Below, in pieces: positions 51,479-54,187 of a stretch of 64,000 nt of DNA (position 1 is the stretch's first letter; each line of letters begins with the position of its first letter). A model generated the notes under the pieces. That model was not told where the DNA came from. It searched no databases and saw only the letters and a list, made by a program, of their open reading frames with translations. The stretch lies in contig DDEZ01000011.1 in the NCBI GenBank assembly GCA_002336805.1, positions 130,228-194,227 on the forward strand, given 5' to 3'. A program made the translations under genes and the position numbers. Source of the DNA: Bacteroidetes bacterium UBA1941. GTDB taxonomy: Bacteria > Bacteroidota > Bacteroidia > Chitinophagales > LD1.

Positions 51479-51488
51479 CGGCTGATAC

Positions 51489-51574
51489 TTGTCGCGGAAC
51501 TAAGTTCCGCAATGTGCCTGGTAGGGAGTATGCGCTTTGTGTGAGGCACGGAACTAAGTTCCGCGCCAGTGGGG
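51489..51574 (+). repeat. REP doublet A (BIME-like composite of two palindromic REPs)
   Basis: Cores GCGGAACTAAGTTCCGC (51494-51510) and CGGAACTAAGTTCCG (51549-51563). About 85-90% identical over ~85 nt to array C (53471-53560). Confidence 0.85.
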
Positions 51575-51580
51575 GATTAA

Positions 51581-51604
51581 GGTTCAAGCGAGTAAGCTTG
51601 AACC
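51581..51604. terminator. Perfect 9-bp stem-loop between convergent genes (possible bidirectional terminator or REP-associated hairpin)
   Basis: GGTTCAAGC-gagtaa-GCTTGAACC. No flanking T-tract. Confidence 0.35.
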
Positions 51605-51619
51605 AGCGCGAGAACCTAG

Positions 51620-52165
51620 TTAATAACTCTCAGCAATAAAGTTATTTCTATCAATGTTATCTATTATCAAGCTTTCGATATGGTGGGGCATTTCACATTG
51701 ATATTCGCTTGCGGAATATGTGCATCTCGGACATTCAAAATTGGGACCAAAACTAGTTTTGTATTGTATCATGGTAGTAGTACATTTTGGACAATGAGCA
51801 GTTAATTGAGTTATTTGCCACCCTGAATTTGTGTGCTTCCATTTCCAACTCCACTTCCAATTTTTTAAGACTCCTTCCGTATAATTCAAAAATTTAGGCA
51901 AGGGTGGGGTTTGTGGTTGTGAAAATCGCCGGAGAATTACTATGAATACAAGTATAGCAGCTGCACTAGAGAGAACCCACCATAATTTTATTTCAAAAGA
52001 TAACACCCGAGTAAGGGTCTTTATAAGGTAGTTTGAAACTAAAATGAAAGTTGTTCCAAGAGGAAGTTCTTTTATATAATCGTGAATTATAGGGATAAGT
52101 GAACCTACCACAGCAGGTATAATTCCTAATGCTAATGGCGATTTTATCCACGAATCCTTTTTCAT
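51620..52165 (-). CDS. AT-rich ORF: TM-anchored protein with a Pro-rich linker, Trp/Lys-rich segment and C4 zinc ribbon; unknown family
   Basis: 181 aa with 2-3 N-terminal TM helices. Then QPQTPPLPKF, WKWSWKWK, CPKC-x16-CPRC and a following CEMPHH. About 30% GC. Lies 12 nt downstream of the preceding ORF. Confidence 0.6.
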   Translation of the reverse strand: MKKDSWIKSPLALGIIPAVVGSLIPIIHDYIKELPLGTTFILVSNYLIKTLTRVLSFEIKLWWVLSSAAAILVFIVILRRFSQPQTPPLPKFLNYTEGVLKNWKWSWKWKHTNSGWQITQLTAHCPKCTTTMIQYKTSFGPNFECPRCTYSASEYQCEMPHHIESLIIDNIDRNNFIAESY

Positions 52166-52177
52166 TTCCGACCAATA

Positions 52178-52738
52178 TTAAATATCAAATGTTTCGGTAC
52201 CTATTTGCTTGTCAATCTCTTGAATTCTTTCATCAACCATATTGAGTTCTATATGATGTTTATTCAAGGACAAAAGCAAATCCCTTTTCTTTATGTGAGC
52301 AAGTAGATATGCAAACGTCGATTCGTAAATGCTCTCAAATATTTCTTCTAATCCGACTAGCTTATTCTTTATTAATAGACAAGCACCCGCGGTTAAAACA
52401 CCAACTAAACTCCATGTTTCTAATAGTCCAGAAATATTGCATGGGACAAGATTATATTTCGTCAAAAAGTAAAAAAATCCTAATGATAACAGCAATAATA
52501 TTGTAACAAGGAGGTTGCCTAATACCCGAGAAATTTGAAGTAATCTTGACTTCAGGTTTTCCTTCGAAGAAATCAATTTATACAGTTTGGTGTATCGATT
52601 AGCTAGTAGATCTCTTTCTTTTATTAAAGTCTCTTTTATACAATTCGAAGAATTTTGATAACAATAGACTACGTACACTATTATCAATAAAATGACTAGG
52701 AATAACACGGTGTTGCGGAAAGAGTAATCGGTATTCAT
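52178..52738 (-). CDS. AT-rich ORF: 3-TM membrane protein with helical cytoplasmic segments; unknown family
   Basis: 186 aa. Hydrophobic helices at roughly residues 10-27, 72-95 and 105-125. Predicted helical/coiled segments lie between them and at the C-terminus. Confidence 0.6.
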   Translation of the reverse strand: MNTDYSFRNTVLFLVILLIIVYVVYCYQNSSNCIKETLIKERDLLANRYTKLYKLISSKENLKSRLLQISRVLGNLLVTILLLLSLGFFYFLTKYNLVPCNISGLLETWSLVGVLTAGACLLIKNKLVGLEEIFESIYESTFAYLLAHIKKRDLLLSLNKHHIELNMVDERIQEIDKQIGTETFDI

Positions 52739-52810
52739 ATAAATTTATAGAGAATAAAAGTACAAATTGATTTTTCTAAAATATAGAGCTTTGTTTTTTG
52801 TTTACAAGTT

Positions 52811-52883
52811 CCCCTACTGGCGCGGAACTTAGTTCCGTGCCGAAGCTGGGCGCAAGCTTAACGGCGGAACTTAGTTGCGCGAG
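52811..52883 (-). repeat. REP doublet B (inverted relative to A and C)
   Basis: CCCCTACTGGCGCGGAACTTAGTTCCGTG is the reverse complement of the A2/C2 unit (CACGGAACTAAGTTCCGCGCCAGTGGGG). The second core at 52864-52880 is degenerate (GTTGCGC). Confidence 0.85.
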
Positions 52884-52917
52884 TAAAGTTGCTTTCTTAA
52901 AAGTATTATATTTAAGT

Positions 52918-53466
52918 ATGAGCGACAAATGGAAAGTGCGTGATAATGCGGAGCCTTATTTTGTGACTTTTGCGGTCAATGGATGGATAGATGTTTTTAC
53001 ACGCAATCTTTACCGCAATATTTTCTGTGAGAGTATAGCCTATTGTCAGGAGCACAAAGGACTGGAGCTATATGCCTGGGTGCTGATGACCAACCATGTG
53101 CATATGATCATCGGCTCGGCCGGAGAACGCGCTATAAGTGATATTGTACGCGACTTGAAAAAATATACTTCGGTACACATCGTGAGGGCAGTGATCGCTA
53201 ATGATCAGGAGAGCCGTAAGGAGTGGATGCTTCAGATATTTGGCCAATCAGCGACTGATAGTGCGAAGCATGATAAGTTCCTTTTCTGGCAGGAGCAGTA
53301 CCATCCTATACAGCTATCTGATGCTACGATCTTCAAACAGAAAATGGATTACATTCATGATAACCCGGTTCGTGCTGGGTTTGTATCCGAGCCGGAGCAT
53401 TATCTGTATAGCAGTGCTATAGATTTTTGTGGTGGTAAGGGGTTGTTGAGGTTGGAGCCTGTGTAG
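52918..53466 (+). CDS. REP-associated tyrosine transposase (RAYT; IS200/IS605 TnpA-like HUH Y1 enzyme)
   Basis: HUH motif in LMTNHVHMIIG, catalytic Tyr context MDYIHDNPVRAG, and a family-typical N-terminus MSDKWKVRD..PYFVTF.V.GWIDVFTR. ATG at 52918 chosen inside the longer ORF that reads through REP B. Confidence 0.85.
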   Translation: MSDKWKVRDNAEPYFVTFAVNGWIDVFTRNLYRNIFCESIAYCQEHKGLELYAWVLMTNHVHMIIGSAGERAISDIVRDLKKYTSVHIVRAVIANDQESRKEWMLQIFGQSATDSAKHDKFLFWQEQYHPIQLSDATIFKQKMDYIHDNPVRAGFVSEPEHYLYSSAIDFCGGKGLLRLEPV

Positions 53467-53470
53467 GCGA

Positions 53471-53598
53471 TGTGTCGCGGAACTAAGTTCCGCAAATGTT
53501 CCTGATGTTGAGTATGCGCTTTGTGTGAGGTACGGAACTAAGTTCCGCGCCAGTTGGGGCTTTGTGTGAGGTACGGAACTAAGTTCCGAGCCGAAGCT
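53471..53598 (+). repeat. REP array C (three REP units)
   Basis: Cores at 53477-53493, 53533-53547 and 53574-53588. The unit CTTTGTGTGAGGTACGGAACTAAGTTCCG is duplicated in tandem. The right flank GCCGAAGCT is shared with array B. Confidence 0.85.
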
Positions 53599-54187
53599 CT
53601 GTTATAGTCCCCGATATCTTCTTTATTTTTATGCTACTGTTATCTTCTTCGTAGGATAAATGGAATTTGTCTAAAACCCTTATGAAATCTTGAATATAAC
53701 TCAGTGAAGTTTTCTTTGTTTCACTTTCACGCTCAAAATCGAATGTTCCAAAATGTTCCTTAACAACTAGATAGTAATCACCCATATCAAAGGGATAGGG
53801 ACTCGGAGATATTGATCCTTCATATCCAATAAGACTGATTATATGAAAAATTAAATTCTTTTCTACGACACCCCAATCTTTCAACTCATTGTACCAGTCA
53901 GCGTTACTATATGTTTCATCACGCTCCAGTTCTTCCTGCGAGAAATAATTAAGTAAATTTCCCTCAGGAGACATGAAATGATGAAAATAAATTTGTTCAG
54001 TCTGCTTGTTTGCAAGGGTAATTTCCTCTCCTCCGTTATTTATGTATTTAATATGCCCCGTCTCTTTATATTCTGGTTGATATGAATTGTAAAGTACAAA
54101 GCGGTCATTTTCATGAATCTTTTGAAGCAATGTATGCAATCCATATTTAAGTTTAGCTGCTTGTAGGGCTTTCTCGTCTATGTTCAT
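53579..54187 (-). CDS. AT-rich ORF: soluble acidic protein of unknown family
   Basis: 202 aa with no TM helix. The last ~5 codons and the stop codon (…ELRLGT*) are read from REP unit C3 and its flank. Confidence 0.55.
   Translation of the reverse strand: MNIDEKALQAAKLKYGLHTLLQKIHENDRFVLYNSYQPEYKETGHIKYINNGGEEITLANKQTEQIYFHHFMSPEGNLLNYFSQEELERDETYSNADWYNELKDWGVVEKNLIFHIISLIGYEGSISPSPYPFDMGDYYLVVKEHFGTFDFERESETKKTSLSYIQDFIRVLDKFHLSYEEDNSSIKIKKISGTITELRLGT

Follow-up and report, generated by a model that had tools for sequence, protein, structure and literature searches.

Comparison with described systems

Genes that lie inside larger defence loci have been described before: PrrC in EcoprrI (type Ic), and the candidates embedded in Hma, BREX and type I restriction-modification (R-M) systems (Payne et al., bioRxiv 10.1101/2024.01.29.577857), a study in which genes nested in multi-gene defence systems were often defence systems themselves. 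Here we describe a pair of co-oriented open reading frames (ORFs) on the minus strand of a stretch of DNA from Bacteroidetes bacterium UBA1941 (contig DDEZ01000011.1; 64,000 nucleotides, hereafter the 64-kb window): ORF A (52178..52738; 186 amino acids, aa) and, downstream of it, ORF B (51620..52165; 181 aa). We find that B, as judged from its sequence and with strong support, is an intact member of a widespread undescribed family that carries a membrane-anchored Trp-ladder/C4 zinc-ribbon module. Our overall reading, to which we give about an even chance, is that B is a candidate new membrane-anchored defence protein, acting either as a sensor-effector or as an R-M accessory, with A as its local partner. 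Small transmembrane (TM)-anchored proteins of defence islands and genes embedded in R-M operons are known in kind; what is new is the B family itself, its Trp-ladder/zinc-ribbon module and its embedding in type III R-M operons.

Like PrrC and the embedded candidates, B occurs in part of its family as a small gene inside a restriction operon, with very short or overlapping junctions, and the B family is also found solo in defence islands. In contrast to PrrC, an anticodon nuclease that is soluble, B sits in the membrane and has no catalytic motif, and the two are unrelated in sequence. The host system also differs, because embedded B genes lie in type III R-M operons, and the window copy is embedded in nothing. 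Payne et al. mention 'type III' only for a DRT system (bioRxiv 10.1101/2024.01.29.577857), and seem not to treat genes embedded in type III R-M systems; PADLOC includes that study's candidates, yet not the B family.

In layout, B resembles Cap15 of CBASS and PycTM of Pycsar, in which N-terminal TM helices are followed by a compact cytoplasmic beta-rich domain that is a possible signal receiver. However, there is no homology, the domain of B is a Trp ladder with a zinc ribbon and not a beta-barrel, and B has no adjacent cyclase or other signal generator. No cyclase is present in the window and no PADLOC effector model scores above noise; the 2TM and 4TM effector models match one member each of the 81 aligned family members described below (E 4e-4 to 8e-3). 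The ribbons of TFIIS, Rpb9 and RPC10 share with B two CxxC knuckles on beta-hairpins, but the match spans the ribbon only, and nothing in them corresponds to the membrane domain of B, to its four-Trp hairpin or to its C-terminal helix.

For A, the preliminary description of this pair, made from the DNA letters and the ORF translations, had proposed a loose resemblance to SLATT-type modules. A is likewise small, with TM helices and helical cytoplasmic segments, but it has three TM segments and a 40-aa insert between TM1 and TM2. The resemblance did not hold up: no SLATT or other Pfam or PADLOC model matches A at E <= 1, and A has no nucleotide-signalling, SMODS, SLOG, TIR or reverse transcriptase partner in the window.

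Sequence evidence places B in a widespread family

A word-indexed search of 5.8 billion proteins with B returned only B itself. This was a false negative. An exhaustive HMMER scan of 1.84 billion cluster representatives found 437 relatives at E <= 1e-3, 205 at E <= 1e-10 and 11 at E <= 1e-30 (including the query), nearly all of them 165-195 aa long and aligned end to end. The best non-self match (E 3.7e-41) covers residues 2-174, and the start codon of B coincides with the N-terminus of its homologs. We observed that the word index misses relatives of this short, low-complexity membrane protein at 25-42% identity. Because the indexed search called both A and B orphans while HMMER found hundreds of B relatives, 'ORFan' (orphan ORF) calls from indexed searches are not to be trusted for short membrane proteins.

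By hydropathy, B has hydrophobic helices at about residues 9-28 and 60-79, and these are followed by QPQTPPLP (83-90), WKWSWKWK (103-110), a C4 motif (C125-P-K-C128, 16 residues, C145-P-R-C148) and CEMPHH (157-162), so that every element listed in the preliminary description is present and in the order given there. Read along the protein, a basic N-terminal tail leads into TM1, a loop with the conserved D29, an amphipathic helix (38-56) and TM2, after which come a Pro-rich linker, a Trp-ladder beta-hairpin (W103/105/107/109), the C4 zinc ribbon and a C-terminal helix containing I167 and D169. We assessed conservation in an alignment of 81 sequences (A1), of which a subset (A2, HCPxCDTP) was used to find related loci. 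Y95, W107, C125 and C145 are invariant in this alignment, and D29, W105, W109, C128, C148, I167 and D169 are conserved in at least 90% of the sequences; B from the window keeps all of these invariant and near-invariant residues. Besides D29, further conserved residues in the membrane and loop part are T39, K60 and W63. The N-terminal part of the family consensus reads KWxKSPW, TM1, D..K..PxLST, helix, LNFxxKVWW (TM2), linker, and the C-terminal part reads PxFxxYxxDxxKxWxWxWxW...WxIxxLxxHCPxCDTPL...CPRC...IExxIxDNIxR. Entropy is lowest at the Trp ladder and the Cys knuckles; the most variable parts are the linker, the loop of the ribbon and the stretch that follows CPRC. Thus the membrane-tethered, Trp-rich zinc ribbon that the preliminary description saw in a single protein is an architecture conserved across a large family.

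That description had also not recognised the combination as any described system, and we found no curated library that covers it. In Pfam, NCBIfam, PADLOC and PHROGs, B has only sub-threshold zinc-ribbon matches, and a PDB profile search returned small zinc ribbons only. The 81 family members, searched against PADLOC (PADLOC-DB v2.0.0, 5027 models), NCBIfam and Pfam, gave generic ribbons or noise-level matches only, and a search of full-text literature found no description of the family. The PADLOC model HEC-08 matches B from the window at E 0.014, in the zinc-ribbon region only; among the 81 members, HEC-08 is found in five (best 1.8e-4) and PDC-S64 in two. HEC-08 itself is a HEPN protein of 358 aa whose zinc fingers lie at the C-terminus (bioRxiv 10.1101/2024.01.29.577857). 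We rejected kinship of B with either HEC-08 or PDC-S64, as the similarity is limited to the zinc ribbon or is weak. Identity with Lar-like restriction-alleviation proteins (PHROG E 0.097) was also rejected, since Pfam scans of the 81 members show assorted generic ribbons only.

An AlphaFold 2 (AF2) model of B, built with a 15-sequence alignment, has a pLDDT of 80 overall and of ~90 for residues 90-175. Its helices span residues 10-31, 38-56, 59-82 and, at the C-terminus, 160-180, and its strands span 97-100, 103-112, 115-124, 133-137, 140-144 and 151-153. The last four strands surround the Cys knuckles at a pLDDT of ~90, and in this model the C-terminal CxxC pair belongs to the zinc-ribbon structural class, with a predicted metal site. 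From beta-strand geometry, the alternating W103, W105, W107 and W109 must lie on one side of the hairpin. The top Foldseek matches of B are the RPC10 and Rpb9 ribbons (probability up to 0.99 over ~36-38 aligned columns, E >= 0.11). The fold search suggested in the preliminary description thus returned ribbon matches for B, while the model of A was too poor to be searched. Neither PDB nor BFVD searches gave a structural precedent for a four-Trp ladder fused to a zinc ribbon.

B homologs in defence islands and type III R-M operons

We collected ~55 B-family loci, ~37 of them non-redundant. The family is spread patchily over Bacteroidota, Bacillota, Riflebacteria and Campylobacterota, and B genes tend to have a lower GC content than their loci. 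The copy in a Labilibaculum metagenome-assembled genome (L031:58-692) is split over two frames and is either a frameshift pseudogene or an assembly error. At least 17 of the ~37 non-redundant loci have a recognised defence or R-M gene within three genes, which is a plain count that carries no background rate and is not a statistic.

The strongest pattern in these loci is the gene order Mod (N6_N4_Mtase, ~620-706 aa), B, Res (ResIII + RE_endonuc, ~1000-1076 aa), found in at least seven independent loci (L025, L026, L027/28, L029, L030/L053-60, L062 and L064) from Firmicutes, Riflebacteria and gut or fermentation metagenomes. The gap from Mod to B is 10-15 nt in most of these loci; the exceptions are L029, where an ATG-only caller gives 188 nt, and L025, where an extra 258-aa Cys-rich protein without a Pfam match (L025:3572-4348) lies between Mod and B. 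The distance from B to Res ranges from -11 to +122 nt, and in several loci the stop codon of B overlaps the start of Res by 4-11 nt. The R-M-embedded B proteins form one clade, and its genes are apparently translationally coupled to Mod and Res. For the window copy, the 20-kb gene table contains neither Mod nor Res. The closest homolog, P0004 (41-42% identity), starts 11 nt after the gene of a type ISP/IIG enzyme (Type_ISP_C E 1.6e-44; PADLOC REase_MTase_IIG 5.8e-46).

These operons could mean that B is an accessory subunit of restriction enzymes, and not an autonomous effector, that tethers or regulates Res/Mod at the inner membrane; restriction would then, for example, be positioned at the site of DNA entry, or Res activity would be tempered, and solo copies would be remnants or act in trans. 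The tight Mod-B-Res order with its apparent translational coupling argues for such a role, as does the independent tie to a second R-M type upstream of P0004, and zinc ribbons commonly mediate protein or nucleic-acid contacts. However, the embedded proteins are one clade, while most family members, including the clade nearest to the window copy, are solo genes with their own upstream region and unrelated neighbours, and no R-M genes lie near the window copy. In addition, the conserved D29, T39, K60 and W63 suggest more than a passive anchor. We regard an accessory role as unlikely.

In addition to Mod and Res, we found genes of several kinds of defence system beside B homologs. One locus has GajA (E 3.9e-264) and a UvrD helicase downstream of B (Gabija; L032), and another has a KwaA-like gene and KwaB (Kiwa), with KwaB upstream of B (L046). 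Other loci contain AbiEi/AbiEii with a 584-aa reverse transcriptase and Mrr (L014); DUF6602, DndB and GIY-YIG (L010); Lit peptidase U49 and DpnII (L008); or TIR_2 and PAPS reductase (L009). An OLD-type ATPase (L030), Hypoth_Ymh (L026), RES and RhuM (L044), T5orf172 (L047) and PhdYeFM/PIN (L077) were each found at one locus, and an Aliarcobacter plasmid (L074) carries two copies each of DUF262 and DUF2971 together with Tn3. Integrases, WYL and AAA_21 recur near B homologs. The conflict or effector role implied in the preliminary description fits these defence-island contexts.

Two further observations concern direct neighbours of B homologs. In two Bacteroidota loci (L021:5277-5996 and L024:2121-2867), homologous GNAT acetyltransferase genes end 10-11 nt before the B homolog, which makes GNAT a second recurrent, tightly coupled upstream partner. 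Directly downstream of another B homolog lies a gene (L036:1415-2305) whose 296-aa product starts with TM helices and has 'YYYDIFLSF...' near its C-terminus; this C-terminal region looks TIR-like by eye, and the protein has no Pfam match at E <= 0.01.

Predicted topology of B

When we averaged over the family, TM1 (<H>, mean hydrophobicity, 0.68; muH, hydrophobic moment, 0.18) and TM2 (<H> 0.87, muH 0.12) are clearly hydrophobic, and helix 2 (<H> 0.41, muH 0.42) is amphipathic. The N-terminus carries a mean net charge of +2.5, and the segment after TM2 has ~2.5 K+R. From these hydrophobicity, moment and charge statistics we infer that the N-terminus of B is inside, that the protein has two TM spans with a loop and an amphipathic helix on the outer face, and that the Trp-ladder/zinc-ribbon module is cytoplasmic.

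A small inner-membrane protein with conserved residues in a predicted outer-face loop, found in defence islands, might also be of the superinfection-exclusion type. B, with or without A, would then block the injection or translocation of DNA without killing the cell, by means of its outer-face loop and amphipathic helix. However, classical superinfection-exclusion proteins are prophage-encoded, and we found no full-length B relative among viruses: IMG/VR viral contigs gave only zinc-ribbon fragments, and GenBank phages gave no match for two B queries. Among plasmids, B from the window has no match and a Firmicutes B has one distant match (the Aliarcobacter plasmid). The best-conserved part of B is also the predicted cytoplasmic Trp-ladder/zinc-ribbon module, which an injection blocker would not obviously need, and exclusion of this type is improbable.

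The A-B gene pair and protein A

The preliminary description placed the two ORFs 12 nt apart, and this is confirmed by the ORF list of the window: A runs from 52738 to 52178 and B from 52165 to 51620, and reading the sequence gives the junction TAA-TATTGGTCGGAA-ATG, with the 12-nt spacer TATTGGTCGGAA at 52166..52177 on the minus strand. A consensus scan called neither a promoter nor a terminator in this spacer, so that the two genes are probably transcribed together as an operon; sigma-70 and terminator consensus scans did no better than shuffles. We observed that A and B share one reading frame, in which the stop of A is followed by four codons and then by the ATG of B (52165-52180). Because the N-terminus of B agrees with the family N-terminus, the alignments suggest that the shared frame is probably a coincidence, rather than a sign of a split gene or of readthrough.

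Both ORFs are real genes and not chance ORFs. In 2000 shuffles of the A-B interval (1191 nt, GC 0.336), the longest stop-free stretch measured 72 codons on average, 100 at the 95th percentile and 181 at most, as compared to the 186 and 181 codons observed; this comparison, together with the hundreds of full-length homologs of B and the position of its start codon at the family N-terminus, is the reason for our conclusion. The same genes are called in four independent assemblies of the same organism (from a wastewater metagenome), and all four are identical to the window in the islet, save one mismatch in L003. What supports A as a gene is its ORF length, its composition (including codon-position GC) and the gene calls in four assemblies.

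The three hydrophobic helices that the preliminary description had assigned to A, with helical segments between them and at the C-terminus, were all found. Hydropathy places the TM segments at about residues 9-27, 70-92 and 106-124. Between TM1 and TM2 lies a charged helical stretch, KERDLLANRYTKLYKLISSKENLKSRLLQ, of ~40 aa and basic in character, and TM3 is followed by a helical, acidic C-terminal tail of ~60 aa. Because of this charge distribution, a topology with the N-terminus out and the C-terminus in is suggested, with both helical segments cytoplasmic. A single-sequence AF2 model of A is all-helical, with a pLDDT of 67 and a pTM of 0.28.

In the word-indexed search of 5.8 billion proteins, A finds only itself. 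It has no match in Pfam, NCBIfam, PADLOC, PHROGs or PDB, and nothing was found in viral, phage and plasmid collections. When A was compared with 459 ORFs of the ~55 B-family loci (blastp, phmmer --max), there was no match, and none of the closest B homologs with known context has an A-like neighbour. These searches point, provisionally, to A being a lineage-specific ORFan, a status that comes from the same word-indexed search that missed the relatives of B, the exhaustive HMMER scan having covered B. The view of A-B as a conserved unit, which the preliminary description would have given up if the two genes were not kept as neighbours, thus fails for the pair, and B as a family is unaffected. 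Small TM or coiled-coil proteins do adjoin some B homologs (L008, L009, L017, L022, L036 and L065). We rejected these as counterparts of A, as they show no kinship with A or among themselves, nor are they commoner than expected for membrane proteins.

An AT-rich islet bordered by REP elements

The A-B pair occupies a ~1.2-kb low-GC islet (GC 0.29-0.40 from ~51550 to ~52900, ~0.33 overall) in flanking DNA with a GC of 0.5-0.64. On one side of the islet are rpmA/rplU, a lipoprotein-like gene and a convergent DUF1826-like gene; on the other are a divergent gene for a REP-associated tyrosine transposase (RAYT; REP, repetitive extragenic palindrome), a 202-aa AT-rich ORFan and PBP1a. The strand of the pair, the AT-rich islet, the bracketing by REPs and the neighbouring RAYT are absent from the preliminary description.

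We found that the REP palindrome CGGAACTWAGTTCCG is present in seven copies in the window, all within 51490-53592, where 0.03 would be expected, and that the copies fall into three clusters, L, M and R, around the intact RAYT. Cluster L is a REP doublet (51490-51578); with a 9-bp hairpin (51581-51604) it makes up a region (51490..51612; from the REP search, repeat analysis and RNA folding) that lies directly 3' of B. Cluster M, an inverted doublet seen in the repeat analysis (52806..52882), falls within the 180 bp that separate A from the divergent RAYT gene, and cluster R (53473..53603) has three copies and repeats L in the same orientation (68 nt, 88% identity). A and B lie exactly between L and M, whose inner arms (32 nt, 97% complementary) are 1233 nt apart, and the drop in GC coincides with these inward-facing arms. 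The RAYT gene (52918..53466, plus strand) lies between M and R, which are inverted relative to each other. Its product matches NCBIfam NF047646 at 104.1 bits (cut-off 80; E 5.8e-30) and also Pfam Y1_Tnp; the profile match above the curated cut-off and the flanking inverted REPs identify it as a RAYT. The longest ORF starts from TTG at 52798, and gene callers use the ATG at 52918.

Like known REPIN/RAYT loci, this one has an intact RAYT, flanking inverted REP doublets and extragenic REP copies, but in the window two REP units that face inward enclose a cassette of two genes (1.2 kb). We know of no REPIN that carries cargo. The layout could be an ordinary accumulation of REPs around a RAYT or a cargo-carrying REPIN-like unit; that the A-B cassette is a cargo-carrying REPIN mobilised by the adjacent RAYT is a speculative side reading and a highly improbable one. 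Two independent assemblies (L002 and L004) end inside REP M (window position 52845), and in L003 there is an alignment break of a few bases within REP R (near 53551-53559). These breaks inside REPs imply further copies of the REP at other places in the genome.

The RNA 3' of B (51480-51625, minus strand) has a predicted fold of -55.6 kcal/mol (z = -7.05), in which the 9-bp hairpin is nested in a longer stem formed by pairing of REP-b with a degenerate REP half beside the stop codon of B. There is no T-run after this structured RNA. The structured region probably ends or stabilises the transcript, and it would serve the convergent DUF1826-like gene as well. An Rfam scan of 48-58 kb gave nothing meaningful. 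The 202-aa ORFan (53579..54187, minus strand; from the ORF list, GC and library scans), the second AT-rich ORFan here, has no TM segment and no match in Pfam, NCBIfam, PADLOC, PHROGs or PDB, and it is a singleton cluster in a collection of 15 billion proteins. Just outside REP cluster R, it may possibly be part of the same acquired islet.

A tight two-gene operon that is AT-rich, islet-borne and beside mobile-element sequences, and in which the layout of A (three TM segments with the predicted N-out/C-in topology) is holin-like, might be expected of a toxin-antitoxin-like addiction cassette. One of the two products would be a toxic membrane protein and the other would neutralise it, stabilising the islet and not acting against phage. 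However, B lacks A, or any other small partner that is conserved, in practically every other locus, and no toxin-antitoxin family matches A or B, which leaves an addiction cassette highly doubtful. A holin reading of A or B was rejected, with no profile or context support.

Discussion

Zinc-binding membrane anti-sigma factors exist, one source labels a B homolog 'Ca2+/Na+ antiporter' and CorA lies 73 nt downstream at one locus, but an everyday membrane function outside conflict, such as that of an accessory subunit of a transporter or of an anti-sigma factor tethered to the membrane, is extremely unlikely. There is no sigma factor among the annotated neighbours of the window pair or of B homologs and no conserved transporter partner among the immediate ones. 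The zinc ribbon of B follows its TM helices, which is not the arrangement of zf-HC2 anti-sigma factors (B has no N-terminal HxxxCxxC before its TM helices). The neighbours are also hypervariable and the taxonomic distribution patchy, and neither reading has profile or context support for A or for B.

We favor the reading of B as a membrane-anchored defence protein. A role against phage or other mobile genetic elements is suggested because a conserved membrane part is combined with a conserved cytoplasmic Trp-ladder/zinc-ribbon module with hypervariable loops, and because the family is found in defence-rich, hypervariable neighborhoods, has a patchy taxonomy and is embedded in R-M operons. The specific mechanism that we infer, a membrane-anchored sensor-effector with A as local partner, is more tentative than this overall reading, and we would not expect it to be right in most such cases. 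The islet, AT-rich, wedged between housekeeping genes and bordered by REPs of the neighboring RAYT, would have been acquired horizontally. The Trp-ladder/zinc-ribbon module would recognise a cue, which could be nucleic acid or protein of the invader or the status of some partner, for example an R-M complex. The effect would then be exerted on the membrane by the conserved membrane part, through permeabilisation of the abortive-infection type or interference with DNA entry. A, the 3-TM/coiled-coil ORFan, would be a lineage-specific partner, a co-effector or a regulator, from the same cassette. In the type III R-M clade, B may set off an abortive response at the membrane once restriction has been circumvented or inhibited; it would be a built-in second line that follows the same logic as PrrC guarding EcoprrI.

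Several points weigh against a defensive role or parts of it. B has, by sequence comparison, no homology to any characterised effector or sensor, and its role is predicted. The association with defence genes is the plain count given above. No R-M or other recognised defence gene lies within ~10 kb of the window pair, and like the window copy some homologs are solo amid housekeeping genes (L020/L079, L019 and L039), with a CorA/SSF transporter, methylmalonyl-CoA mutase and a response regulator among their neighbors. The topology of B is read from hydropathy and charge only, and its Trp ladder could just sit at the membrane interface, ligand binding being hypothetical. A has no conservation support and could be non-functional.

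The interpretation offered in the preliminary description is partly supported: the zinc-ribbon family and its context stand for B, and the pair as a unit and the SLATT likeness of A do not. The interest of this locus rests on the B family rather than on the A-B pairing. Tentatively, and with the balance of probability against it, the B family may be a new widespread anti-phage module that works as a sensor alone in defence islands and as a second line inside type III R-M operons, and that has recruited an orphan 3-TM partner in the window. Any ligand of the Trp-ladder/zinc-ribbon module would be of mechanistic interest, because PDB and BFVD searches gave no structural precedent for this fusion. 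If B is defensive, a compact family of ~180-aa proteins, common in Bacteroidota and gut Firmicutes, would be missing from defence catalogues; it would also show a gene housed within type III R-M operons and offer a test case for the coupling of restriction to membrane-level or abortive responses.

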